From contig JAAYXD010000144.1 of NCBI GenBank assembly GCA_012516065.1, positions 4,577-28,576 on the forward strand: a stretch of 24,000 nt of DNA. The letters run 5' to 3'. A program made the position numbers and the translations under genes. This document shows positions 7,406 to 23,591 of the stretch, in pieces. This stretch comes from Clostridiaceae bacterium (GTDB lineage: Bacteria > Bacillota > Clostridia > DSM-8532). Under the pieces are notes generated by a model. The model was given only the letters and a program-made list of their open reading frames with translations, had not been told where the DNA came from and searched no databases. The first letter of the stretch is position 1, and the number at the start of each line of letters is the position of its first letter.

Positions 7406-8248
7406 TTAAATGATAATAATATCTTTAAAGCCTTTGGCTGCAAGCAGCCCGGCGTAATATTCCATTTGATTACGTGTCGGAATTTGCAAAGTCTCCTTAT
7501 ATTGCGGGCGAACCCCCATCGGACGATAGGATATAAGCTTATATCGGATGGGGCGAATGGGTAAGTAGCTACTGAGCATGTCGCCGATTTGTGTAATGGT
7601 TTGTTCTGCATCGAAAAGGCCTGGTGAAACTACTGTACGAACCTCAAACAGCTTACCCTTTGATGCAAGAAAACGTGCATTTTTCAATACAACCTGGTTG
7701 CTCCATCCGGTCACCCGCTTGTGTTCTTCACAGTCAAATGCTTTTATGTCAAGCATTACGCCGTCGGTAACAGCCAGCAAATCAGGATAGTGTTCAAAAT
7801 CGAGGGTTCCATTGGAGTCAATCAGGGTGGACAGGCCATGAGCCTGTGCCAGAATAAACAGCTCTGTCAGAAACTCCGGGTAAAGTGTGCATTCTCCGCC
7901 GGAAACGGTGATACCGCGGATAAATGGGATTTGCTTTTCCACCTTTCGCCAAACCTGTTCCGGTGTCATATCAACGGTTTTGGGGCTGCTGTCATGAGGG
8001 CATGCCTTGATGCAGCTGTCACAATGGACGCATTTGGCACAGTTGTAACGAACTTTTTCATCTTCGAAGCTTAATGCCCCTGTGGGGCATGAGTTGACAC
8101 ATGCCCCACAGTGCATACATTTGCATCTTGTTTCAGGATTATGGCAATACAAACAGTTCATATTGCAGCCCTGTAAAAAGATAGCGGTACGGTTGCCAGG
8201 CCCGTCAACGGTGCTGAAAGGTATGATTTTGTTGACAGTGGCCACCAT
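7406..8248 (-). CDS. yjjW: Glycyl-radical enzyme activating protein (radical SAM), YjjW-like
   Basis: 280 aa. The N-terminal 'VDGPGNRTAIFLQGCNMNCLYCHNPE' carries the CxxxCxxC radical SAM cluster. Two ferredoxin-like Cys clusters follow (CMHCGACVNSCP, CVHCDSCIKACP), as in GRE activases. 'VSGGE' forms the SAM-binding glycine motif. The start lies 2 nt after the stop of the upstream GRE gene. Confidence 0.85.
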   Translation of the reverse strand: MVATVNKIIPFSTVDGPGNRTAIFLQGCNMNCLYCHNPETRCKCMHCGACVNSCPTGALSFEDEKVRYNCAKCVHCDSCIKACPHDSSPKTVDMTPEQVWRKVEKQIPFIRGITVSGGECTLYPEFLTELFILAQAHGLSTLIDSNGTLDFEHYPDLLAVTDGVMLDIKAFDCEEHKRVTGWSNQVVLKNARFLASKGKLFEVRTVVSPGLFDAEQTITQIGDMLSSYLPIRPIRYKLISYRPMGVRPQYKETLQIPTRNQMEYYAGLLAAKGFKDIIII

Positions 8249-8250
8249 AA

Positions 8251-9795
8251 TCAGCGCACCTTTCTATCCAAAATCTTTCCATTCATGACGGCGCCCATTC
8301 CCAAAGCGGTGGTGTCCTGCAGCACATTCTGACCGCTTTTCAGCTTTTCGATTTCCGACCGTTTGACCAGGTAGCCCGTGATACGGATAACATCGCTGTT
8401 CTTCTCATAGAAGGACAGATAGCGCAATTCCTTGCGGAAGGAGCCTTTGACGATGTCCAGCACGTATTCGGGATTTTGGTGAACAGTAACATCAATAGGG
8501 AAAATGTCGCCCGTTCCGGATGGAAAATATTTATGGAAATGATTGACAACCATGAGGTGATCAATCATTTCGTCGGGTTCCTCTCCTATGGGGATACGGG
8601 TACCCGGCGAGATATTTTGATCTTCTGAAATTCCTACTTGCGCATGAAGCAGAAAATGACCGCCGGTTATTTCGCAGTAGGGGTTATGGTGTTTCTCACT
8701 GAATTCATATATCTGCTTGATGATGGATTCACCAAGCTCGGTAGCGTACTCATCGTGGCCAAAGCGGCCGGGACGGCCCTCTTTTTCCAGCAGGATATTT
8801 ACACATTCCGCCAGACCCACCAGGCCAAACATGGCAGTGAAGCGTTTGCGGCTGATAAAGCCTTCCCTGGCCAGGAAGTTATTTTCAAAGAAGCCGCTTT
8901 CTTCGACTTCAAAGCGGATACGGGAGTCCATGTAACGTGCCATGATGTCCATAACATAGGGCAGCTGGTTGGTCCTGAAATCTTCAATTCCGCCCGCGCG
9001 TTTTGCAATGTTGCCCAAAATCAGGCGGCAAAGGGTGTATGATCCGCCGCCCAGCGGCAATCCGTTATAGCAGCTGGCAATGACATAATTCTCACCAAGT
9101 TCCTGCGTAAACATGCGGTGGTTGGCAAAGCTGGGCTTGGCCGAACGCAGGGCTGTCTTGACAGCCTGAATGGCGAAGTCGTCATCGGTTACGCCTTCTT
9201 CGTATTTTAAGGTCAGATTGGGAACGGCCTGCGTAAGCTCTGCCTCCACCTCAAGCAGCAAGCGGCCGGTCCGTGTGGGCTTGGGACCGATATTTGCATG
9301 GGAGAAGGAGTCAAGAATAGTACGGTCCACGTGCACCAAAAAGCCTCGCAGAAGTTTTTTGGCCGTAGTGTCGTCAACGTCTTGCATAAAAGGTTCCAGC
9401 AGCGTATCCAACTGTCCCAGATATACCGGGAAGTTGGTTACGCTTGGAACATGCTTGTAGAAAATCAGCAGAGAATTAAGCGCTTCATATAAGTCGGTCG
9501 GTGGCGCAAGCTGCAGAAACCGGCTGCCTTCCTTCATGAATTTGGCATAGTCGGGAATGATATATCGGGGACGAAGCGGAGCGTGTCCCTCATTCAGGTC
9601 GCAGATGCATTTTCTGTCTGCCGGGACATTCATCAGCTCGTCCAGCCCCTGCGGCAAATCCAATACTTCCAGCAGAGAATCGGCAGTATTGGCCAGTGAA
9701 GCAACCTTTTGCTCGTGAGTTAGTATCGGGCTTTTGATGATATCCAGTATTTTCTTGCGCGTTTCATTCACGCGCTCCATGGAAATGTCTCTCAA
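8251..9795 (-). CDS. yjjI: YjjI-family glycyl-radical enzyme, function unknown
   Basis: 514 aa, about the size I recall for E. coli YjjI. The C-terminal 'DVIRITGYLVKR' matches the glycyl-radical fingerprint RVxG[FYW]. It is tightly coupled to a dedicated activase. The start is a TTG at 9795 preceded by GGAAGGGTGG with 7-nt spacing. Family assignment is by recollection of family features, not by alignment. Confidence 0.78.
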   Translation of the reverse strand: MRDISMERVNETRKKILDIIKSPILTHEQKVASLANTADSLLEVLDLPQGLDELMNVPADRKCICDLNEGHAPLRPRYIIPDYAKFMKEGSRFLQLAPPTDLYEALNSLLIFYKHVPSVTNFPVYLGQLDTLLEPFMQDVDDTTAKKLLRGFLVHVDRTILDSFSHANIGPKPTRTGRLLLEVEAELTQAVPNLTLKYEEGVTDDDFAIQAVKTALRSAKPSFANHRMFTQELGENYVIASCYNGLPLGGGSYTLCRLILGNIAKRAGGIEDFRTNQLPYVMDIMARYMDSRIRFEVEESGFFENNFLAREGFISRKRFTAMFGLVGLAECVNILLEKEGRPGRFGHDEYATELGESIIKQIYEFSEKHHNPYCEITGGHFLLHAQVGISEDQNISPGTRIPIGEEPDEMIDHLMVVNHFHKYFPSGTGDIFPIDVTVHQNPEYVLDIVKGSFRKELRYLSFYEKNSDVIRITGYLVKRSEIEKLKSGQNVLQDTTALGMGAVMNGKILDRKVR

Positions 9796-12127: not shown

Positions 12128-12385
12128 GTTTAAAAAAAGAATGCAAAAATATACATTTTGAGGATGAATTTATCGAAAAAATGGAGAAGAAAATAACAAG
12201 AATAGAAAAAGATTTTGAAGAAGGAAATAAAACACCTGAAGAATTACTGAAAGAATTAGATGATAGTTCAGATATAGACTGATAAACATTAATCCGGGAA
12301 ACTCGTAGCTATATAGCCAGGAAAGGGAATTTTTTGGTTGAATAAAAAGATTACAAAAAACCAATTTCAAATATCAGGAGTGAAA

Positions 12386-13129
12386 ATGATGAATGATGGG
12401 AAAGAAAAAAAGAATGAAAGCAATGCTGAGAGCGGGAGTGATTACGAAAGAATAGATGATATATTTTTCCGCCAGATTAATGAGAGGAGAAAGGAAGACC
12501 CGTTGATAGGCGCCAAACTGGGTGCTAAAGAAATTTTCAACACTTTATTGAATGCTGTCAGGGATTCAAGAGGTGTACATATTGAGACTCTTATATGCGC
12601 ACTGGGAGCCCTTGCGGGTTATTCATGCCAGGCGAGCCTGAGGAAAGAATTCGTTGAGATCAGAGGACTGAGTGAAGAACAGGTGTTTACGGTCATACAG
12701 GCGAAAAACGGCAAGAGGTACTTTTTTGGCGACCTTATAAACAAGCCGCTGTTTGAAAATCAATATTCTGTATGGTCCCTGGCTGCCGGCATAGTGCAGC
12801 ACATGGGTGTGAATATTGATTTTGACATCCTTGAGATTTTCAAATATGTCTCTGCCACGGTCGGTACCGAGAACTACGGCATTCCAAGGATTCCAGAGGG
12901 ACACCGGACGGCAGACGTTCCGATCAATTTTGTCAAGGCTTTTTGGCCGTTGTTCCTCCCCCGTATTGAGAAGTATTGCGCTTCCCCGCGTGAGTGGCCG
13001 GTTTTATTTGGATTGGCGATACAGGATGGACTGCTTCAGGGGAAGGATGTCATAGACCCTTCACTGGCGCTTAAAATAGTTATGGAAAGTGCCATTCCGA
13101 TGGCAAAGGCTGAGATTGTGTTTGATTAG
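12386..13129 (+). CDS. Hypothetical protein with no recognisable family
   Basis: I trimmed the 263-aa ORF to the ATG at 12386, which has AGGAG 5 nt upstream, giving 247 aa. It has a charged, low-complexity N-terminus (KEKKNESNAESGSDYER) followed by a globular-looking region. A strong terminator follows at 13150. I could identify no motif. Confidence 0.6.
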   Translation: MMNDGKEKKNESNAESGSDYERIDDIFFRQINERRKEDPLIGAKLGAKEIFNTLLNAVRDSRGVHIETLICALGALAGYSCQASLRKEFVEIRGLSEEQVFTVIQAKNGKRYFFGDLINKPLFENQYSVWSLAAGIVQHMGVNIDFDILEIFKYVSATVGTENYGIPRIPEGHRTADVPINFVKAFWPLFLPRIEKYCASPREWPVLFGLAIQDGLLQGKDVIDPSLALKIVMESAIPMAKAEIVFD

Positions 13130-13370: not shown

Positions 13371-13417
13371 AAAAATAAACAAAAGCTCCGAGGGCATCGA
13401 GCCCCCATCGCTTTTTG
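13371..13417 (-). terminator. Rho-independent terminator, distal member of a tandem pair ending the nitrogenase-like operon
   Basis: The minus-strand RNA reads AAAAGC-gat-GGGGGC-tcgat-GCCCTC-gga-GCTTTTGTTTATTTTT. The inner stem's second position is a G-U pair on the minus transcript and an A-C mismatch on the + transcript. That favours function for the minus-strand operon. A T-run is also present on the + side. Confidence 0.65.
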
Positions 13418-13480: not shown

Positions 13481-14341
<861 letters not shown>

Positions 14342-14355
14342 CTAACCTCCGTAAT

Positions 14356-15159
14356 CTATATGGTATATTCCGGCTGTGGCAGCGCACTTGCCAGATGCAG
14401 TTTTTCTAATATATTCCGTCGAAGGGAAAGAAATTCGGTTCCTCCACGATGCCGAGGATGTGGGAGATTAATCTCCATGATCTCACTGATTTTTCCGGGC
14501 CGCGGAGTCATAACCACAATACGGTCGGAAAGATAGATTGCTTCGTCCACATCGTGGGTTACCAGAATCATTGTCGTTTTATTTTCTTTATGAAGCTCAA
14601 GCAATTTATCCTGAATATCGGAACGGGTAAAGGAATCTAAGGCACTCATGGGTTCATCAAGAAGCAGTACCTTTGGATTATTGATCAATGCCCTGGCAAT
14701 AGCAACTCTCTGAGCCATACCTCCGCTTAACTGATGCGGGTAACATTTTTCAAACCCCTTAAGTCCAATCAGGTCTATATAATGGGCAATACGGTGTTTA
14801 TTCTCCCTATAAACATGGCGTGCCTTAAGTCCGGTTGCGATATTTTTCTCAACAGTCAGCCATTGAAAAAGACCTCCATGCTGAAAAACGTAGCCCCGCT
14901 CTGGATCTGGTCCGGAGATTTGCTCTCCGTTAAGAATCAGGGTTCCTGTTTCCGGCTTGTCAAGACCTGCTATAAGCCGTAAGAGCGTCGTCTTTCCGCA
15001 ACCGGAGGAACCTATGATGGAAAGGAATTCTCCCCGGCGGACGGACAAATTGATATCCCGAAGTACCTCAACATGGTTTCCGGCGTCGTCATAATAAGTG
15101 TAATTTACATTTTCTATATGTAAAATAATATCACTGATTACCGATAAGTTTTTGCTCAT
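14356..15159 (-). CDS. ABC transporter ATP-binding protein, NitT/TauT (nitrate/sulfonate/taurine) family
   Basis: Walker A is GSSGCGKTT, the signature is LSGGMAQRVAIARAL, Walker B is LLLDEP and the H-loop is VTHD. An ATGA overlap joins it to the permease stop at 15156-15159. Confidence 0.9.
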   Translation of the reverse strand: MSKNLSVISDIILHIENVNYTYYDDAGNHVEVLRDINLSVRRGEFLSIIGSSGCGKTTLLRLIAGLDKPETGTLILNGEQISGPDPERGYVFQHGGLFQWLTVEKNIATGLKARHVYRENKHRIAHYIDLIGLKGFEKCYPHQLSGGMAQRVAIARALINNPKVLLLDEPMSALDSFTRSDIQDKLLELHKENKTTMILVTHDVDEAIYLSDRIVVMTPRPGKISEIMEINLPHPRHRGGTEFLSLRRNILEKLHLASALPQPEYTI

Positions 15160-16223
15160 TCCTTAACCCATCCTTTCTGCCACCGGAGCACATTCGCCTG
15201 TATTAGCCCCAGTATTTTCATAATTAGACTGAACAGCAGGGCCATAACGAGAATGGAGGCAAATACCTTATAGTAGGCAGACCACACCTTGCTTAAATTT
15301 ATGTAGTAACCCAATCCTCCCGGCTGGCCCATCATCTCTGCCATTACCAAAGTTGTAAAAGCAAAACCATTGGCATTGGAAATACCGGTAAAAATCTGGG
15401 GCATGGCCTGAGGCACTGCAACATGGAATATTAAAAATGGCGTTTTTGCCCCCAGGGTGCGAGCTACTTCGAACTGATACTTTGGGGTGGATTGTATGCC
15501 CTGGGCTGTAAGAGCCGCAATGGAAAACCATGCGCATATTACAATAAGAAAAACAGCTGCTGAAAACGGAGACGGGAAAAGCGTCAGTGCAAAGGGCATC
15601 CACGCTACGGCAGGAATGACACCGGTAATCTTTAATATTGGATATACCCAATAATATACCTTTGGAAACCAACCGATTAAAATTCCCGTACCCACTCCAA
15701 ACACCACACCCAGAGTAAATCCGGCCAAAAAAAGTTTAATGGAGTAAAGGGTATTTTGTAAAATAAAATCTCCTTCAATCAAAAAGGATTCAAGAATTTT
15801 TGCCGGTCCCGGGAAAAACGGCTGCGGTAATAAAAGAAGCTTTGTTCCTAATATATCCCAAGCTGTAATAGCCAGACCCATAGCGAAACGAAAGGGAGCC
15901 TGCCTGGAAAATTTTTCTCTTCGCACAGGATCAAAATATGAAAATATTCCCATACCGGCATAAATCAAAATAATTACTACCAGGACCAATCGGTAAAGCA
16001 AATTAAATGTGAAGGGAATTCCTGCAACAAAATAAGTTTTGATTTCCACATTTGCCACTTGCTTCACCAGAATATTGGCTGCTATGGCTACAGCAAACCC
16101 TGCCAGTGTCAGTACAAAATTAGTACTCCAATTTTGGGCCGAAACCGTTTTTAGTTTTCCATATTGTTGCTTTACTTTTAATTCCGAGGATGTTGGGCTT
16201 TGTAGTTTTACTAAATCGTACAT
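15156..16223 (-). CDS. ABC transporter permease, NitT/TauT family (SsuC/TauC-like) with an N-terminal extension
   Basis: It is polytopic with an EAA-loop region 'ARTLGAKTPFLIFHVAVPQAMPQIFTGI'. AGGAGGT lies 8 nt upstream of the ATG at 16223. At 355 aa it is longer than I recall for SsuC/TauC, which are roughly 250-280 aa. Confidence 0.85.
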   Translation of the reverse strand: MYDLVKLQSPTSSELKVKQQYGKLKTVSAQNWSTNFVLTLAGFAVAIAANILVKQVANVEIKTYFVAGIPFTFNLLYRLVLVVIILIYAGMGIFSYFDPVRREKFSRQAPFRFAMGLAITAWDILGTKLLLLPQPFFPGPAKILESFLIEGDFILQNTLYSIKLFLAGFTLGVVFGVGTGILIGWFPKVYYWVYPILKITGVIPAVAWMPFALTLFPSPFSAAVFLIVICAWFSIAALTAQGIQSTPKYQFEVARTLGAKTPFLIFHVAVPQAMPQIFTGISNANGFAFTTLVMAEMMGQPGGLGYYINLSKVWSAYYKVFASILVMALLFSLIMKILGLIQANVLRWQKGWVKE

Positions 16224-16303: not shown

Positions 16304-17365
16304 TTATAAACCCAGGTTGATGTCGACCTCGACATAAGCATTCTTTGTGAAAGTATCAGGATCCGTCTTTAAATATCCAATTTGGTTCAATTGTTCGGCA
16401 AAATAGTAAACATTGTCTCGAACCTGTGTTTTATTTTTTTCCCGTTCGGCATAAGAAGGGTATTGATAGCTCTTGATAAGCTTAATGGCTAATTCTCTGT
16501 CTTCAATCTGCGCGTATTTACCATTTATTATAATGTCGACGGCTTCTTCCGGGTTTTCCGAAATCCAGTTTTGGGCTGCCCTATATGCACGCAGCAATGC
16601 GGCAACCTGTTCTGGTTTTTCGTCAAGCAGCTTTTCCGAAGCATAAAGGAAACAGCAGTATTTTCCGGCAAAAGGTTCATCCTTGGAAATATCAAGAATT
16701 ACACGGTAATTTCCCGTTTTTTCCTGAACAGAGCCGAAGGGATCCCACAGTGCCGCAACATCAACCTCTCCTTTTCTCAGGGCTTCCACTGCCAGATTTC
16801 CGTCGGAGAAGGGAAGGAACGTAACTTCTCCGTCCTCCTGCTTTGCGGAAATTCCGTTTTTCTCCAGCCACACCGATGCTACCTGATGGGGAGTGCCGCC
16901 TATTTCATCAACGCTGATCTTTTTTCCCCTAAGGTCTTGAACTCCTTGAATCGGTGAATCCTTCGGAACAATCAGTTTTATGCATCCATAGTGGAGACCG
17001 TCCACCACCTTTACCTTCACATTGTTTTCAATAGAGGGAAAGAACTGAAAGTCCCCGTTGACAATCGGGATGGTACCGTTGTTCAAACCGATTTTACGGG
17101 TTTCGGTATCTGCCGATATAAGGTTGACATCAAAGCCCTCTTGCTTGAAAAAGCCCTTTTCATATGCAATATAGATAGGTGCACCGCAAAGTGAACCGTC
17201 TTTACCGGGAATATCAATTTTTCCGTATTTGTATTCTGCTGAAGATGTCCCCGTTTTCCCGTTGTCCTGGGTACCTCCCGTATTCGTCCTGCCACATCCG
17301 GAAAACAAGCCTATAAAAATGGAAAACAGAGCGACTGCACTGATCAATTTTATAAAACCTTTCAT
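16304..17365 (-). CDS. ABC transporter substrate-binding lipoprotein, NMT1/SsuA/TauA-like (NitT/TauT family)
   Basis: The signal peptide carries the lipobox 'LFSGCG'. The periplasmic-binding fold region resembles the aliphatic-sulfonate/NMT1 type. I trimmed the ORF to the ATG at 17365, downstream of GGGGTG. It starts 24 nt after the metY-like stop. Confidence 0.82.
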   Translation of the reverse strand: MKGFIKLISAVALFSIFIGLFSGCGRTNTGGTQDNGKTGTSSAEYKYGKIDIPGKDGSLCGAPIYIAYEKGFFKQEGFDVNLISADTETRKIGLNNGTIPIVNGDFQFFPSIENNVKVKVVDGLHYGCIKLIVPKDSPIQGVQDLRGKKISVDEIGGTPHQVASVWLEKNGISAKQEDGEVTFLPFSDGNLAVEALRKGEVDVAALWDPFGSVQEKTGNYRVILDISKDEPFAGKYCCFLYASEKLLDEKPEQVAALLRAYRAAQNWISENPEEAVDIIINGKYAQIEDRELAIKLIKSYQYPSYAEREKNKTQVRDNVYYFAEQLNQIGYLKTDPDTFTKNAYVEVDINLGL

Positions 17366-17389
17366 GATAAAACACACCCCTTTACGAAA

Positions 17390-18706
17390 TTATATATATG
17401 CCTTTTCAAACGCCTGTTCCAAATCAGCTATTAAATCTGCCGGATCTTCCAGTCCTGCCGATATGCGAATTAAGTTTTCCGGAATATCGGCAAATTTTTT
17501 CTCATCAGGCTCCAGTTCACTATGGGTGGTTTGCGGAGAATTTACAATCAGGCTGCGGGCATCCCCAATATTGACATGATAATGAAAGAGTTTCACTGAG
17601 TTCAAGAAAGTTTCCCTTTGAGCCGTTGTCCCTTTGAAACCGAATGACAGGATTCCTCCCGCTCCTTTTGGGAAATCCCTTTGTGCCAGCTCATAATAGG
17701 GGCTATCCTTCAAACCGGGGTAACGAACCCATTCCACCGACTTGTGGGATTTTAGGTATTCCGCCAGGATACTGGCATTACGCACTTGTTTTTCAACGCG
17801 CTCAGACAGGGTTTCCAATCCGATTAAAACAAGGTAGGCATCAAAAGGCGATAATGCCGCTCCAAAGTAGTTGAGATAGTTAAAGCGTATCCTGCCGGTA
17901 AACGGAGCCTCCGGAAATACTTCAAGAAAACTGCGGTAGTTATCGTTAATGTCCCGCAGGGTATAATACTTTTCCGAAAACTGAGGGAATTTATCGCTCT
18001 GCCAGTTGAATTTACCGCTTTCCAGCACCAGTCCGGCAATAACGTTTCCGTGTCCCGTCAATCCTTTGGTCGCAGAGTAGACCACAATGTCGGCCCCATG
18101 GGAAATAGGGTTATACAAGTACGGCGTTGCAACTGTATTGTCTACAATCAGAGGTATGCCATGTTCATGGGCGACTTTCGCAATCGCATCAATGTCCAAA
18201 AGAGCGGCATTGGGATTGCTGATGCTTTCCACATAGATTGCTTTGGTATCGGGCTTAATTTCTTCCGAAAGCTTTTCAGGATTTTCTATATTTTTAGCAA
18301 AATCGAAGGTTATACCAAATTTAGGATAAACTTTTTTAAAACTGTCCGCACTGCCGCCATAGAGATAGGGAGAAGTCAAAATACGACCTCCGCCCTCTGC
18401 AACATTGAGCAGAGTATAACTGATAGCTGCCATGCCGGAAGCCAGTGCCACTGCACCGCTGGCTCCGTCAAGGGCCGCTACCCGTTGCTCCAGTACAGCA
18501 ACCGTAGGATTTCCAATGCGGGTATAAAGGTTTCCCAATTCGCGAAGTCCAAATAAAGCTTTTGCATGCTCTACATCGCGAAAGTCAAAGGAAGTGGTCT
18601 GATAAATGGGCGGCGATACGGCATAGTTATGCTCCTTTGGATCATAGCCTGCCCGCAGTCTTTGAGTATCAAACCGATATGCAGTTTTTTCTAATTCGTT
18701 TGCCAT
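17390..18706 (-). CDS. metY: O-acetylhomoserine sulfhydrylase / aminocarboxypropyltransferase (Cys/Met-metabolism PLP enzyme)
   Basis: It belongs to the Cys_Met_Meta_PP family. Supporting motifs are 'YTRIGNPT', 'ASGMAAI', 'VDNTVATPYL' and the PLP-lysine context 'YSATKGLTGHG'. I trimmed the ORF to the ATG at 18706, which has AGGAGGAG 7 nt upstream. Confidence 0.9.
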   Translation of the reverse strand: MANELEKTAYRFDTQRLRAGYDPKEHNYAVSPPIYQTTSFDFRDVEHAKALFGLRELGNLYTRIGNPTVAVLEQRVAALDGASGAVALASGMAAISYTLLNVAEGGGRILTSPYLYGGSADSFKKVYPKFGITFDFAKNIENPEKLSEEIKPDTKAIYVESISNPNAALLDIDAIAKVAHEHGIPLIVDNTVATPYLYNPISHGADIVVYSATKGLTGHGNVIAGLVLESGKFNWQSDKFPQFSEKYYTLRDINDNYRSFLEVFPEAPFTGRIRFNYLNYFGAALSPFDAYLVLIGLETLSERVEKQVRNASILAEYLKSHKSVEWVRYPGLKDSPYYELAQRDFPKGAGGILSFGFKGTTAQRETFLNSVKLFHYHVNIGDARSLIVNSPQTTHSELEPDEKKFADIPENLIRISAGLEDPADLIADLEQAFEKAYI

Positions 18707-18780
18707 GTTAAATCTCCTCCTATAAATAAATTTGAAAGTATACATCGGGGCATTTCCGTCATGTCACAGTCACTACACAT
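18691..18780 (-). CDS. 29-codon upstream ORF MCSDCDMTEMPRCILSNLFIGGDLTWQTN (candidate Cys/Met-sensing leader peptide or Cys-rich micro-protein)
   Basis: It is below the ORF-track size cutoff and was found by hand translation of the minus strand. The ATG at 18780 has AGGAGGTG 7 nt upstream, one of the best SDs in the window. Three Cys and three Met (including the initiator) fall in the first 13 codons. The ORF reads across the metY SD and ends in a TAG 16 nt inside metY, in a different frame. Confidence 0.45.
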   Translation of the reverse strand: MCSDCDMTEMPRCILSNLFIGGDLTWQTN

Positions 18781-18977: not shown

Positions 18978-19853
18978 TTAGCCATGGGAAAAGGTATTTT
19001 CCAATTTTACAGGCCTAATATATAAACTTGAGGATATATCCTTACCGCCTGGAATTCCGGCAGCATCTGCTCTACAACGCTGGCAATGCCGGAATACATT
19101 GATATAGGCCTGGGCTTCTGACCTCACTTTGCTGATGAGATCACATCCCGGTGTGCTGCACCAGCTAAGCTTGTGCTGGGGAATCAGCGGAATAATGTTA
19201 TAGATTTTTGCTCCGTGCTGTGCAACAGTCTTTGCCACTTCCACCACATGATCCGCGTTGATCTCCGGGATTAACACTGTATTTACTTTTACGGTTATTC
19301 CTGATTGGGATACTTTCTTAATTCCGGCAAGTTGATTTTGAATAAGAATTTTTGCGGCTTCAATTCCTGTATAGCGCTTACCATGATAGACAATACCCTC
19401 GCAAATCTGTGCCTGTATTTCCGGGTCAACTGCATTGACGGTAACAGTCAGGCTGTCAATGCCCACATCAATAATCTCATCAGCGTATTCCGGCAGAAGA
19501 AGGCCGTTGGTGCTCATGCATTTTATAATATGAGGGAATTCCTGCTTGATAAGGCGAAAGGTCTGCAGTGCATAAGGTGTTGCCAGGGTATCACCCGGTC
19601 CGGCCACTCCCGCTACAGTAATATCGGGGCAAAGTTCCACCGCTCTTCTCACTGCATCTACAGCTTCCTGTGGTGTGATTATTCCGCTTGCAACCCCGGG
19701 ACGGTTATCCGTATCGTTGATGTCACGCTTGCAAAAATTGCAGGCAATATTGCACCCGTAAGATACCGGCAAATGAACACGACCCTTATTGTTTTTAGCT
19801 CCCGCCGCAAAACAGGGATGATTTTTTTTCAGATCTTCATATGTAAATGCCAT
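18978..19853 (-). CDS. NifB-like radical SAM protein (core domain only)
   Basis: 291 aa. 'RVHLPVSYGCNIACNFCKRD' carries the CxxxCxxC cluster in a NifB-like context. 'GPGDTLA' and the C-terminal 'CQRCRADAAG' resemble the NifB 'CRQCRADA' motif. SD AAGGAGGAA lies upstream of the ATG at 19853. Confidence 0.86.
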   Translation of the reverse strand: MAFTYEDLKKNHPCFAAGAKNNKGRVHLPVSYGCNIACNFCKRDINDTDNRPGVASGIITPQEAVDAVRRAVELCPDITVAGVAGPGDTLATPYALQTFRLIKQEFPHIIKCMSTNGLLLPEYADEIIDVGIDSLTVTVNAVDPEIQAQICEGIVYHGKRYTGIEAAKILIQNQLAGIKKVSQSGITVKVNTVLIPEINADHVVEVAKTVAQHGAKIYNIIPLIPQHKLSWCSTPGCDLISKVRSEAQAYINVFRHCQRCRADAAGIPGGKDISSSLYIRPVKLENTFSHG

Positions 19854-19865
19854 AAAACTTCCTCC

Positions 19866-20201
19866 TTAACCGCCTTCTTCATGCAAGCGGCCACCGACCA
19901 GTTGGGCAAGGATCTCTTCCACTTCACCGGTTGCTTCAAAGACTCTTTTGCCTTTGGCTATCATAACAGCTGCCGCAGCCTGACCTATTTTCAAAACAAA
20001 TATTGCATCACAGTCCTCCAACACTGAAAGAAGATGGTCAAATCCGCCTTCGCAATGACCCTGACATTTGGCGGCCGTTTTTCGGGTCTCCACAAAACGC
20101 GCCTCTTTATCCACATCATATATCTGCCAGTATCTGGCCGAGCCAAAGTGTTGATCAATAACAGTGCCGTCAATACTGGCAAATCCAATACGGTAACTCA
20201 T
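19866..20201 (-). CDS. NifX/NafY/NifB-C-terminal-domain protein (dinitrogenase Fe-Mo cofactor biosynthesis domain)
   Basis: 111 aa after trimming to the ATG at 20201, which has AAGGAGGG 7 nt upstream. 'IDQHFGSARYWQIYDV' matches the HFG-type motif of this small cofactor-binding fold. It sits directly upstream of the NifB-like gene, like a split NifB. Confidence 0.78.
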   Translation of the reverse strand: MSYRIGFASIDGTVIDQHFGSARYWQIYDVDKEARFVETRKTAAKCQGHCEGGFDHLLSVLEDCDAIFVLKIGQAAAAVMIAKGKRVFEATGEVEEILAQLVGGRLHEEGG

Positions 20202-20214
20202 ACGGTCGCCCTCC

Positions 20215-21558
20215 TTATGCATAGGTTGAAAGAACCGTCTGGTAGATGTCCTCTATAACCCGAAGCCCTCCTGTAAATCCTGCGTAATTGGTTGTCAAGA
20301 CCAACCGGTAGGGAGAAGGTAAAGCAGCTGAAAGGAAATCATAGCCTTTTTCTTTTGCCAGTTCCTTATCCCATCCTGAACCGATGATGAGGCCCCTTCC
20401 TTTATGATGGATTCCCCTAAGAATCTCCTGCGCCTTTCCCGCATCGGGCTCAAAATAAAGCGGAATTTCCTTTTTATCGCTGGTGCTTTTCAAATCGGCG
20501 CGAATGGCTTCATGGAATTTTTCCGGTGTAGCATCGGTAATAAATTGTTCCTTTGGTACAATTCCCACCTCGTGCAGCAAAAACTTAGACAGTGCGACGA
20601 CATATCCCGCGTCATGAAGGATATGGGCATGGTTGGGAAGACCGTAGCGAAACTCCAAAAGGAAGGTGGCAAGGTTATCAATCTCCTCATAGTAGGCATG
20701 GGACTCGTGACGGATAAACTCCTGGGCTGATTCTTTGTCAATATCTGCTCCTTGTTCGATGGCAAATTCCACAACTTGATTAAGGAACGCCTCGGTTTGA
20801 TTGGCACCTATGGGAATGTGATGAAACCATGTATATTCCTGCCCGTATTTGGATTTGAGGTGATCCGCAATGGGTTTTCCGTACCATGGGGAAACTAAAA
20901 TATTGAAAAGTGCTGTAGGTATGGACTGCCACTCTTTTACACCTCCCGACTGGGGTCCGAATAAAACATTGGCTTTAAGCCCAATACCGGCAAGCAGACG
21001 CTTGTATTCGGCCAGATTACCCTTCCAAAACGGATCCTGATACGGAATGGAGGCTATAAGATTCACTGTGTTTTTTTGCGATTTTGGCTTATTCTCATCT
21101 TCAAACCGGCTTACATATTGATCTATAATGGCATTAACCACAAGGCTGTGAGCTTCAAAGTTGGTGGCCTTAAATCCTGCAGTTTCCACGGATACAATCG
21201 GCTTACCCTTTTGGGCAAATTCAGAAACAAGGCTGTCCACATCGTCTCCGACAATACCGGCGGTGCAGCCGGTCAGAACCACCTGCAAATCCGTATCCAA
21301 TACTTTGTAGGTGTTTTCTATAATATCCCTCAGCCGGTTGATTCCGCCAAACACAACTTCTTTTTCTGTAAAGTTTGTGCAGGGAGATGTGGAACCGCCG
21401 GCGTATCCCGTTGACCGTTCAAAAAATCCGGCAATCATCTCGCCGCAGCCGGGACCGGAATGAAGAATCGGCACGGCCCGCGGAATAGCCACCACGGTTT
21501 GCAAAGCACCGATTGCACAGGTAAAACGTTCTTGTTCAATCAATCCGGATCTACTCAT
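20215..21558 (-). CDS. Nitrogenase component-1 beta-like subunit (NifK/NifN-like)
   Basis: 447 aa. The contexts 'FTCAIGALQ', 'ILHSGPGCGEM' and 'VLTGCTAGIVGDDVDS' correspond to the three P-cluster Cys contexts of NifK as I recall them. An ATGA overlap joins it to the alpha-like gene. Confidence 0.85.
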   Translation of the reverse strand: MSRSGLIEQERFTCAIGALQTVVAIPRAVPILHSGPGCGEMIAGFFERSTGYAGGSTSPCTNFTEKEVVFGGINRLRDIIENTYKVLDTDLQVVLTGCTAGIVGDDVDSLVSEFAQKGKPIVSVETAGFKATNFEAHSLVVNAIIDQYVSRFEDENKPKSQKNTVNLIASIPYQDPFWKGNLAEYKRLLAGIGLKANVLFGPQSGGVKEWQSIPTALFNILVSPWYGKPIADHLKSKYGQEYTWFHHIPIGANQTEAFLNQVVEFAIEQGADIDKESAQEFIRHESHAYYEEIDNLATFLLEFRYGLPNHAHILHDAGYVVALSKFLLHEVGIVPKEQFITDATPEKFHEAIRADLKSTSDKKEIPLYFEPDAGKAQEILRGIHHKGRGLIIGSGWDKELAKEKGYDFLSAALPSPYRLVLTTNYAGFTGGLRVIEDIYQTVLSTYA

Positions 21559-23030
21559 TTACCGGTACCTCCTTTCAGGAAATAATACGGCGGCTGCTCA
21601 AGCCACCATTTGGTGTATGGATTGATGGCATGCTTTTCGAGGTTTTTTACAAATTCATCGTTTTCAATAACTTCTAAAATACGCTCACCGTAATTGACCA
21701 GACCTTCATAACCCATGGAGTAATGTTCATCGCCAATTAAAAGTGACGGAATGCCCAGTTTTGCTCCCCAGAGAGTCATGCCGCCATGCCGGGCCAGCAA
21801 TACATCGGGACGGAGGCGGTTTAAGGCATTGACCAGCTCAAACTCCTGCTTGTTGCAAACATTGTAGTTAAAAACATTTCCATAATCGGCTACGCGCTGA
21901 GCCAGTTGGTCGTTTTCCTCACGTCCGCTGTCATAGATGGGGTCGTGATGGAAAATCGCTGCACCGACTGCTTTAATGCCAAGCTCTCCCAGTACATCCA
22001 GCAACGCATGGCCATGGGCAGCACCTGCTGTTACATAAGCCGTTTTTCCGGCCAATTTTTCCCGTAGAGCTTCAATTTTGGGCAGATACTCTTTCTTTTT
22101 TTCCGCAATGATTTTTTCAGCAATTTCTTCTTTGCCGAGGATCTTTCCCAACGCCCTGAACCATCTATCCGTTTGTGCAATACCGTAGGGTGGGGCGGCA
22201 GGAATTTCGGGAACACCAAAATCCTGTTCCAGCACTGCTCCCAGGTAGCTTCCCAGCGTGGAGCAAGCCTGGACGGTGGCAGCGGCCTCGCTGGCATATT
22301 TTAATCCGTTCACTGTAGAAAAAGGGATTATGTAATTGGGTTTTGCTCCAAAGGGAGCAAACCATTCGTAAAACACATCGCTGCCCCAGAAATTGATTAC
22401 ATTGATCATGTCATCCCGCCGCCTCCGGGGTTTTTGAATCAGCTTGCGTGCAATGCCGTGGTAAGCAGCGTCAAAACCTGTGGTCCATACTTTGGAACGA
22501 AAACCTTCGCAAAAGATGGCTACCACCGGTATTCCCAACTCTTCCTCGGCTTCGTTGCAAACGCTTTCCACATCATCGCCGATAATTCCGGCAGCGCATG
22601 TGGTCAATACAAAAATAGCGTTGGCATGCGTTCTCTCATATACCTCTCGAATGGTATTGGCAAGCTTTATATTTCCTCCGTAAACTGTATCCTTTTCCTT
22701 TAGATTGGTGGAAAAGATACGGCGTGGTGTGGGACGTTCAATACCGCGCAAAGGATAATTCACCCGATAGGTAAAGGCAAATTCATGCAGACAGGAAGCA
22801 CAGCCCACCGGTCCATGGCTGATGACTGCAGCGTCCTGAATTAACACAGTCATACAGGCCGCTTTTGAGGTAGCACAGCCCAGGCATTGGCTAAAGGAAC
22901 GTTCTTTATCCTTCAGACCGAATTCGCGGGCTTCTACCAGTTCCTTAGCATCTCCCTGATAACCCGTTATTGAATTAATACGAATTTCCCTTATCTGTAC
23001 TTCCGGAAGGGATAAATTTATTTTTGACAT
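21555..23030 (-). CDS. Nitrogenase component-1 alpha-like subunit (NifD/NifE-like)
   Basis: 491 aa. 'CLGCATSKAACMTV', 'VISHGPVGCASC' and 'VLTTCAAGIIGDDVESV' match NifD P-cluster Cys contexts. 'VQACSTLGSYLGAVLEQDFGVPE' aligns by eye with the NifD '[22 protein letters not shown]' cofactor-Cys region. 'KLGIPSLLIGDEHYSMGYEG' resembles the cofactor-His region. GGAGTG lies 7 nt upstream of the ATG at 23030. Confidence 0.85.
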   Translation of the reverse strand: MSKINLSLPEVQIREIRINSITGYQGDAKELVEAREFGLKDKERSFSQCLGCATSKAACMTVLIQDAAVISHGPVGCASCLHEFAFTYRVNYPLRGIERPTPRRIFSTNLKEKDTVYGGNIKLANTIREVYERTHANAIFVLTTCAAGIIGDDVESVCNEAEEELGIPVVAIFCEGFRSKVWTTGFDAAYHGIARKLIQKPRRRRDDMINVINFWGSDVFYEWFAPFGAKPNYIIPFSTVNGLKYASEAAATVQACSTLGSYLGAVLEQDFGVPEIPAAPPYGIAQTDRWFRALGKILGKEEIAEKIIAEKKKEYLPKIEALREKLAGKTAYVTAGAAHGHALLDVLGELGIKAVGAAIFHHDPIYDSGREENDQLAQRVADYGNVFNYNVCNKQEFELVNALNRLRPDVLLARHGGMTLWGAKLGIPSLLIGDEHYSMGYEGLVNYGERILEVIENDEFVKNLEKHAINPYTKWWLEQPPYYFLKGGTGK

Positions 23031-23514
23031 TTGTCATCACTCCGTTCGCTAAAGATTCCAAACTTTTTTCACTCATTCGATATGTACGCCGGTCTAAAAG
23101 GGGAACTGCCCCCAGATGCTTATAAAACCTTGAGCCGCTTTTATTGTCCTCAAGTACATACCAGTCAAGACGTTTCGCATCCATTTGCAAAGCTTTCTTT
23201 GCAAGCTGTTTCATAAGTGCTTTACCAATACCCTTACCTCGATATTCTTCTTTCACAAACAGGTCTTCTAAAAAGAGGTTTTGCCGTCCGGAGAAGGTGG
23301 AATATACGGGATAAAACAGTGCAAAGGCTGCGGGATTACCGTCAATTTCAGCTATTAAAACATTTGCCTGTCTTTTTTGAAAAAGGGATTCCCGAAGCTC
23401 TGCTTCAGTCGTTGTAACCTCTTTGCCCATCCCCTCAAATTCTGCAAGTTCTTTAATAAACGAAAGCACCAATGCACTGTCAGATATATCCGCTTCTCTA
23501 ATATGTAAGTCCAT
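22975..23514 (-). CDS. GNAT N-acetyltransferase, spermidine/spermine (SSAT)/diamine acetyltransferase-like
   Basis: 179 aa after trimming to the ATG at 23514, which has GGGGTGG 5 nt upstream. It runs colinear with my recollection of human SSAT. The matching pairs are 'FIKELAEFEGM' versus 'LIKELAKYEYM', 'LFLEDLFVKEEYRGKGIGKAL' versus '[21 protein letters not shown]', and 'SRFYKHLGA' versus 'INFYKRRGA'. The 3' end overlaps the NifD-like start by 56 nt. Confidence 0.85.
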   Translation of the reverse strand: MDLHIREADISDSALVLSFIKELAEFEGMGKEVTTTEAELRESLFQKRQANVLIAEIDGNPAAFALFYPVYSTFSGRQNLFLEDLFVKEEYRGKGIGKALMKQLAKKALQMDAKRLDWYVLEDNKSGSRFYKHLGAVPLLDRRTYRMSEKSLESLANGVMTNVKNKFIPSGSTDKGNSY

Positions 23515-23562
23515 AAAAACCACCCCTTTTGTATTAAACATATATGATTAGTATGTTTTAAA

Positions 23563-23591
23563 ATATTACACTTTTCTATATACAATGTCAA
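23563..23591 (-). promoter_or_regulatory. Sigma-A-type promoter candidate for the GNAT/nitrogenase-like operon
   Basis: On the minus strand, TTGACA (23591-23586) is followed by a 17-nt spacer and TAATAT (23568-23563). It lies about 45 nt upstream of the GNAT start. A 7-bp inverted repeat, AAACATA-N9-TATGTTT (23536-23558), lies between the -10 element and the SD. Confidence 0.55.

Follow-up and report, generated by a model that had tools for sequence, protein, structure and literature searches.

A Group IV-A nitrogenase-like system encoded with methionine-synthesis and transport genes in a Clostridiaceae genome, and its probable role in organosulfur cleavage

The stretch of DNA analyzed here, 24,000 nucleotides of contig JAAYXD010000144.1 (positions 4,577 to 28,576 of the forward strand; hereafter the window) from the Clostridiaceae bacterium assembly GCA_012516065.1, carries on its minus strand an operon built around a pair of nitrogenase-like genes, D and K. 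By phylogeny and residue pattern, the encoded system is a further member of a known clade of nitrogen-fixation-like (NFL) proteins, Group IV-A (Nfa-type), and not of Group IV-C, the group of methylthio-alkane reductase (MAR). By analogy with MAR, and considering the genes that share the operon, we think it reasonably probable that this Group IV-A enzyme is a reductase with a P-cluster and an L-cluster, which would cleave an imported organosulfur compound to supply O-acetylhomoserine sulfhydrylase (MetY). Reduction of N2 and strict MAR activity both appear less likely than such a role. The two subunits are encoded as follows.

21555..23030, minus strand: D-like (NfaD-type) catalytic alpha subunit, 491 aa; Pfam Oxidored_nitro, E 7e-93
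20215..21558, minus strand: K-like (NfaK-type) beta subunit, 447 aa; Pfam Oxidored_nitro, E 7e-62

With E-values of this size, the match of both proteins to the D/K family is far beyond chance. A first-pass annotation of the same DNA, made from the letters and their open reading frames (ORFs), had placed the pair at coordinates that correspond exactly to these two minus-strand ORFs, in which the start of K overlaps the stop of D by 4 nt, and every motif string that it quoted is present in the two translations.

Placement of the D and K proteins in Group IV-A

A scan of named genomes for relatives recovered at least 80 loci encoding proteins with 97-56% identity to the window D protein. The matches listed include loci from Clostridia, Spirochaetota, Synergistota, Elusimicrobiota and Actinomycetota, the nearest named relatives among them being Acetivibrio clariflavus and A. 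straminisolvens (97%), and an identical D protein is recorded on 277 contigs. Representative sequences searched with D yielded one near cluster, followed by a fall to 43% identity or less, and the nifD and nifE cut-offs were reached by 0 of the 10 distant representatives that were sampled.

For the Nfa proteins of Endomicrobium proavitum, the published key residues are Cys53/78/146, the extra Cys50/60/81 and Cys257 in NfaD, Cys13/37/97 in NfaK and Cys97/133 in NfaH (PMC13474568). A closed E. proavitum-type genome (G052), reached through the family of an Endomicrobium locus, contains a single NFL system whose D, K and H proteins match these numbers exactly, and by this exact numbering and the presence of just one such system its NfaD was chosen as the E. 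proavitum anchor. The window proteins have Cys52/77/145, Cys49/59/80 and Cys256 in D and Cys14/38/98 in K, a pattern colinear with that of Nfa at an offset of one and inclusive of the three extra D cysteines. They are 69% (D) and 66% (K) identical to the E. proavitum-type proteins and share their Arg-His cofactor motif.

Phylogenetic trees were rooted on the K subunits and were computed with IQ-TREE in a quick analysis (LG+C20 with posterior mean site frequencies, PMSF) and with FastTree from 190 rows. MarD of Rhodospirillum rubrum itself and IsrD of Rhodobacter capsulatus are not in the tree, where the protein P0130 stands as proxy anchor for R. rubrum MarD. The window D protein and the NfaD anchor fall in one clade, referred to here as X1, with a support of 99 in the Shimodaira-Hasegawa-like approximate likelihood ratio test (SH-aLRT) of the IQ-TREE analysis, and FastTree agrees. 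A second clade, X2, is the sister group of X1 (joint support 100), and the MarD clade of R. rubrum type stands apart from both (support 100). A union of window D with this MarD clade is rejected by an approximately unbiased (AU) test (p = 5e-6), for which the group was defined with the tree already in view. Taken together, the trees and the AU test assign the system to Group IV-A and not to Group IV-C, and the gene set of Group IV-A (B, H, D and K) is found, together with a NifX-like gene, in a single operon.

The system had first been filed as MAR (Group IV-C), from its top matches in the PDB and its MetY context. Chains of R. rubrum MAR (9FMG, 9D9U) are indeed the best solved matches, both for D (9fmg_A and 9d9u_A, E 5e-130) and for K (9d9u_C, E 1e-113), whereas true NifD and NifK structures score 1e-38 or weaker. 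A Foldseek search with the AlphaFold model of D (predicted local distance difference test, pLDDT, 74; predicted template modeling score, pTM, 0.76) likewise returned 9fmg_A first, at template modeling (TM) scores of 0.82/0.86 and 42% identity. The MAR filing was dropped because identity to MarD is about 42%, the R. rubrum-type family has clostridial members of its own, and the trees and AU test separate the two groups. A search with P0130 found many members of the R. rubrum-type family in clostridia, Bacteroidia and Succinivibrio, and Ruminiclostridium sufflavum carries an R. rubrum-type paralogue plus a 79% relative of window D (L020, P0308). Against 9fmg_A, P0130 scores 616 bits, P0128 453 bits and window D 437 bits.

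Conservation of residues was counted over 53 X1, 25 X2 and 14 R. rubrum-type D sequences. The three P-cluster cysteines of D, the cofactor Cys, the Arg-His pair, Trp182, Phe186 and His361 are invariant in all three groups. Four other positions are occupied as follows.

MarD His194 position (at belt sulfur S2B): His in 14/14 R. rubrum-type; Val, Ile or Met in 53/53 X1; Ile in 24 and Val in 1 of the X2 sequences
MarD Gln74 position: Gln in 14/14 R. rubrum-type; mostly Met or Thr in X1; Gln in 23 and Met in 2 of the X2 sequences
Window Cys49 position: Gln, Ser or Glu in R. rubrum-type; Cys in 52/53 X1; Cys in 25/25 X2
Window Cys80 position: Arg, Asp, Glu and others in R. rubrum-type; Cys in 50/53 X1; Asp in 24 and Glu in 1 of the X2 sequences

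Among the residues of the S2B site in MAR, window D keeps the Trp and His375 and has Val in place of His194, so that a pocket His invariant in MAR is replaced throughout the X1 clade. At the Gln74 position window D has Met.

Clade X2 includes Ruminiclostridium cellobioparum, Clostridium akagii, Paenibacillus and Sporomusa. Five genomes of Paenibacillus, Propionispira, R. cellobioparum and C. akagii (G090-G094) each encode 9-18 D/K-type genes, as against one pair in the window genome. Two X2-type loci labelled as a Methanosarcina metagenome-assembled genome (MAG; L088) and a Patescibacteria MAG (L078) nest among Bacillota, and these host labels are probably binning errors. Within the window's own family, the X1-type gene occurs sporadically: 3 of 56 genomes encode an orthologue with at least 83% identity, and none of 3 genomes of the same genus does. 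X1-type genes 64-74% identical to that of the window are nevertheless present in Treponema, Synergistaceae, Endomicrobium and an Olsenella MAG (loci L043-L060). Such a distribution is consistent with the gene having spread horizontally among anaerobes of gut and sediment.

Cluster ligands, active-site pocket and maturation genes

The first-pass annotation had recognized six cysteine contexts of the kind that hold the P-cluster in NifDK, and these were borne out by alignment to the MAR chains 9fmg_A and 9d9u_C. In phmmer alignments read against the ligand list of the MAR cryo-electron microscopy (cryo-EM) paper (PMC12552129), D Cys52/77/145 correspond to the P-cluster ligands MarD Cys66/91/158 (9fmg_A) and K Cys14/38/98 to MarK Cys32/56/121 (9d9u_C). 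The extra cysteines Cys49 and Cys80 of D lie near the P-cluster, and the N-terminus of D is 14 residues shorter than that of MarD. The cofactor Cys that had been proposed in the motif 'VQACSTLGSY' also holds, as D Cys256 aligns with MarD Cys270 and with Cys275 of Azotobacter NifD.

A replacement of the nitrogenase pocket residues Gln191 and His195, likewise suggested at first pass, is seen in two alignments. In that to MAR, Trp182 and Phe186 of D (MarD Trp195 and Phe199) occupy the sites of Azotobacter Gln191 and His195, and Cys59-Met60 (MarD Cys73-Gln74) occupies that of Val70, so that all three nitrogenase residues are absent. The family profile was also aligned by hhalign to a true NifD from a related locus (P0443), and this alignment independently pairs Cys256 with Cys275, Trp182 with Gln191 and Phe186 with His195; the agreement between the two argues that the pocket replacement is real. 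Further pocket residues are Val181, at the MarD His194 position, and His361, at the MarD His375 position.

The second cofactor ligand had been misplaced. The His of 'GDEHYSMGY' (His436), taken at first pass as the counterpart of Azotobacter His442, is equivalent to MarD His450, whose mutation has no effect in MAR, whereas His429 and Cys270 of MarD are essential. It lies on the same loop as Azotobacter His442 and yet not at the ligand position: in the sole sequence alignment that reaches the region (9p1x_A), the nitrogenase His aligns three residues before His436, on Gly433. Since the hhalign alignment to NifD ends at residue 367, the His442 region is not reliably alignable by sequence. The alignment to MarD places the cofactor His at His415 instead, with Arg414-His415 in the motif 'LARHGG' corresponding to the MarD ligand pair Arg428-His429. 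In MAR the His ligand belongs to a loop specific to MarD, and for this reason earlier analyses of the sequence had overlooked it (PMC12552129). The set Cys256, His415 and Arg414 is common to nearly all Group IV proteins and is thus not diagnostic of MAR.

The cryo-EM structure of MAR (PMC12552129) shows, besides the P-cluster, an [Fe8S9C] cluster bound by the same Cys/His pair that window D conserves, and maturation of MAR needs MarB or NifB and does not need NifEN. BchNB and CfbD are without the full set of P-cluster cysteines. In the window, six such cysteines and a Cys/His pair are present and a NifB-like gene is adjacent, which is not the pattern of a cubane-only enzyme, and by analogy with MAR it is well supported that D/K would house a P-cluster plus a NifB-derived complex cluster and not a cubane of the BchNB/CfbD type. 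The first-pass annotation had proposed a NifB-derived cluster matured without NifEN; the core of that proposal stands by homology to MAR, and its choice of His ligand does not. The idea is not new, having been published for MAR in 2025, and a P-cluster with a NifB-derived L-cluster made without NifEN has already been predicted for Group IV-A Nfa proteins (2026 review; PMC13474568).

By homology, the NifB-like radical S-adenosylmethionine (SAM) enzyme would build the [Fe8S9C] L-cluster, and the NifX-like carrier would pass it straight to apo-D2K2 with no NifEN step. D would then hold the cluster via Cys256 and His415, with Arg414 beside it, while an [Fe8S7] P-cluster would bridge Cys52/77/145 of D and Cys14/38/98 of K, and the NifH-like ATPase would supply low-potential electrons.

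The NifB-like (19853-18978) and NifX-like (20222-19866) genes noted next to D/K at first pass were confirmed by profile matches. The NifB-like protein can be aligned over its whole length to the archaeal NifB structures 7jma/7bi7 (residues 7-282, E 1e-83) and contains HPC (12-14), CX3CX2C (34-41), TNG (115) and CxxCRADA (257-264) motifs. Its score of 279.8 bits against TIGR01290 does not reach the cut-off, since the NifX domain is encoded by a gene of its own, and the NifX-like protein also matches nifX and the NifB C-terminal domain, both below cut-off. A split nflX with a truncated B is an arrangement already described, and it is shared with the E. proavitum system. The NifH-like protein has a Walker A motif (12-19) and Cys98 and Cys133 at the [4Fe-4S] ligand positions, scores 462.9 bits against TIGR01287 (nifH), above the cut-off of 394, and is closest among solved structures to Clostridium pasteurianum NifH (1cp2, E 2e-137; MarH 9fmg_D, E 4e-88). 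Such a NifH-like partner is of the type described as 'Group I NflH' in an mBio paper.

The Fe protein varies within X1. Of 39 X1 loci, 32 encode a NifH-like H with 70% or more identity to that of the window, whereas the H of the E. proavitum-type genome and of a few other X1 loci is distant (about 48% identity to the window's), a variation which suggests that the Fe protein was exchanged during the history of the clade.

The host assembly (3.07 Mb, rated 99.98% complete) encodes one D/K pair above the Pfam Oxidored_nitro cut-off, one NifH-type protein, one NifB-like gene and the NifX-like gene. A NifEN scaffold, reported as missing at first pass, is absent from the window and genome-wide, where only two Oxidored_nitro proteins exceed the cut-off; with a single D/K pair, the host thus has neither a nitrogenase nor NifEN. 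The window system shares with Mo-nitrogenase the fold, the alpha2beta2 logic, the P-cluster cysteines, the Cys275 position, a near-canonical NifH and the NifB core. It differs in the pocket, in taking its predicted cofactor His from another loop, and in its profile scores, which are far below the cut-offs for nifD (139 bits vs 653.55) and nifK (82 vs 427), and it shows no sign of a heterometal or homocitrate. Against the models for Cfb and for dark-operative protochlorophyllide oxidoreductase (DPOR), the window proteins are also far below cut-off.

Linkage to sulfur genes and candidate function

The D and K genes belong to a set of ten tightly packed genes spanning about 10 kb, in the order GNAT, D, K, NifX-like, NifB-like, MetY, substrate-binding protein (SBP), permease, ATPase and NifH-like. 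The elements other than D and K are listed here from the 5' end of the operon.

23563..23591, minus strand: promoter-like site, TTGACA-17-TAATAT, just upstream of the GNAT gene (consensus scan only)
22975..23541, minus strand: GNAT acetyltransferase, first gene of the operon; Pfam Acetyltransf_1, E 1e-19
19866..20222, minus strand: NifX-like cofactor carrier (NflX), 118 aa, encoded by its own gene; Pfam Nitro_FeMo-Co, E 9e-23
18978..19853, minus strand: NifB-like radical-SAM maturase (NfaB), 291 aa, core only; matches NifB structures 7jma/7bi7
18691..18780, minus strand: Cys/Met-rich leader ORF, 29 codons, starting MCSDCDM; spans the metY ribosome-binding site and start
17390..18745, minus strand: O-acetylhomoserine sulfhydrylase (MetY); Pfam Cys_Met_Meta_PP, E 6e-122
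16304..17377, minus strand: ABC substrate-binding protein (SBP), NMT1/SsuA-like; SsuA_fam 104 bits, below cut-off
15156..16223, minus strand: ABC permease of the nitrate/sulfonate/taurine family; profile matches
14356..15159, minus strand: ABC ATPase of the same transporter family as the permease; profile matches
13481..14335, minus strand: NifH-like Fe protein, 284 aa, last gene of the operon; Pfam Fer4_NifH, E 3e-129
13389..13407, minus strand: terminator-like hairpin 3' of the NifH-like gene (consensus scan only)

Gene linkage was counted over 39 X1 loci of at least 14 kb. The metY gene lies within 21 of the 39 and the transporter trio within 14, and seven loci, of different lineages, have exactly the gene order of the window. 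In the E. proavitum-type genome (L110, G052:C1:832000-851900), nfa genes are interleaved with sulfur genes on one strand at about 5.6-18.2 kb of the locus, in the order metY, SBP, permease, ATPase, NfaD, NfaK, NifX-like, a gene of the cystathionine-gamma-synthase/lyase family, CysK, NfaB, a second NifX-like gene and NfaH. The window shares with this locus the linkage to metY and an SsuA-like ABC transporter, and differs from it in gene order, in having the GNAT gene and in being without the interleaved cysK and cystathionine-synthase-like genes. Co-localization of Group IV-A systems with sulfur genes has also been noted in the literature.

In the role that we favor, the ABC importer would bring in an organosulfur compound, the D/K system would cleave it reductively, and MetY would turn the sulfide or methanethiol released into homocysteine or methionine. 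The sharing of an operon with sulfur amino-acid genes makes sulfur harvest more likely than N2 fixation, and the recurrence of the metY and importer linkage across phyla and in E. proavitum favors organosulfur assimilation. The Cys-rich leader ORF ahead of metY adds weight to a sulfur role.

Several observations weigh against this role. About half of the X1 loci have no metY in the sequence covered. The SBP is weakly SsuA-like (its best PDB match is an uncharacterized exported protein, with SsuA at E 2e-6) and nitrate, nitrite and cyanate are also substrates of its transporter family, so that the sulfur assignment rests mainly on metY, cysK and similar neighbors. The AlphaFold model of D is moderately confident, with the cluster-binding loops its weakest part. 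For E. proavitum, the type organism of the clade, there are reports of 15N2 incorporation and of nfaH expression confined to growth without ammonium (PMC13474568 and further literature), and the Group IV-A systems placed in R. rubrum did not form ethylene or ethane at the level of MAR. The literature contains no work on a purified Group IV-A enzyme or on the window protein (PMC13474568), and searches of that on Clostridium thermocellum and the rumen yielded no usable expression record of the operon.

A true MAR would convert volatile thioethers (dimethyl sulfide, DMS; ethyl methyl sulfide, EMS; 2-methylthioethanol, MT-EtOH) to methanethiol with methane, ethane or ethylene, and MetY would then make methionine. 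MAR is the closest solved relative in both sequence and fold, all cluster ligands and the equivalents of Trp195, Phe199, His375 and Arg428 are conserved, and the adjacency of MetY fits the MAR pathway, methionine synthesis being the context of both systems. We nevertheless regard this function as unlikely, given that window D lies outside the R. rubrum MarD-type clade at the low identity noted above, and that His194, kept by every R. rubrum-type sequence, is lost from every X1 sequence, with Gln74 also replaced. Experiments in the literature bear on both sides. The tested Group IV-A systems, R. rubrum's own included, were inactive on MT-EtOH and EMS, but a Group IV-A system of Clostridium magnum made methane from DMS above the cut-off, and weak heterologous activity may stem from incompatibility between the NifH-like Fe protein and R. 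rubrum, as was shown for a Group IV-C system. The presence of both types in some genomes, for example that of R. sufflavum, suggests distinct roles, and a dedicated ABC importer would be unexpected for a volatile substrate that diffuses freely.

An alternative nitrogenase, reducing N2 (or nitrite or N2O) to ammonia in the manner of E. proavitum Nfa, seems to us quite improbable. It would suit the orthology of window D to the E. proavitum NfaD-type protein, in view of the 15N2 incorporation, acetylene reduction and ammonium-repressed nfaH reported in that organism, but the same review doubts that N2 fixation is primary and notes contaminant nitrogen in N2 gas (PMC13474568). Diazotrophic growth of both E. 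proavitum and Heliophilum fasciatum is limited, and N2 fixation as the primary role is questioned for them (PMC13474568). The Fe protein is nearly canonical NifH and the transporter family includes nitrate and nitrite importers; however, the equivalents of Val70, Gln191 and His195 are Cys, Trp and Phe, the operon is without nitrogen-regulatory genes, and the assignable non-NFL neighbors are all sulfur amino-acid or transport genes, those of the E. proavitum-type locus included. In MAR, the L-cluster alone is reported not to reduce N2.

A sulfonate-cleaving reductase resembling isethionate reductase (IsrBHDK, Group IV-F), fed by an Ssu-like transporter, would account for the SsuA-family-like SBP and permease and recalls the reported co-induction of IsrBHDK with ssuCAB, but is very unlikely, as Isr is predicted to hold only [4Fe-4S] (PMC13474568) while the window D/K keeps the full P- and L-cluster ligands, the operon has no sulfite reductase gene for the sulfite product and the SBP match to SsuA is weak.

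Beyond the window, organosulfur cleavage may extend to the group as a whole. We tentatively suggest, with somewhat less confidence than for the window system itself and short of thinking it probable, that all Group IV-A 'Nfa' enzymes, including that of E. proavitum from which the clade took its nitrogen-fixation name, could be primarily organosulfur-cleaving P-/L-cluster reductases functionally coupled to a dedicated ABC importer and MetY, and that any reduction of N2 by them would be secondary. The locus offers a lead on Group IV-A function through its linkage of metY and an SsuA-like importer, seen across several phyla and in the E. proavitum-type genome, and the host, having one NFL system and neither a nitrogenase nor NifEN, provides a clean background for finding the substrate.

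Operon junctions, the metY leader and neighboring genes

The 3' end of the GNAT gene and the start of the D-like gene overlap by 56 nt. A GNAT gene is found in only 3 of the 39 X1 loci and is thus a lineage-specific add-on. The largest gap in the operon, 232 nt, separates the NifB-like gene from metY, and all other junctions range from -56 to +80 nt. An Rfam search of the whole window at gathering thresholds found no riboswitch or other RNA family.

MetY scores 494.2 bits against TIGR01326, whose cut-off is 495.1. The longest metY ORF opens 13 codons before the Met that aligns with the N-termini of orthologues, and this downstream Met, at about 18706, is probably the true start. Leaders of the MC(S)DC type lie 20-35 nt upstream of metY in four further loci (L010, L062, L017 and L020), two from close and two from more distant relatives, so that the leader is present in 5 of the 12 sequences examined, the window included. 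The leader ORF may act as a translational attenuator that senses Cys and Met.

Elsewhere in the window, a 263-aa ORF without a Pfam match lies on the plus strand between two operons (12338-13129). On the minus strand, at 7406-9795, a YjjI-like glycyl-radical enzyme and its radical-SAM activase are encoded inside a nucleoside ABC-transporter/phosphorylase operon.

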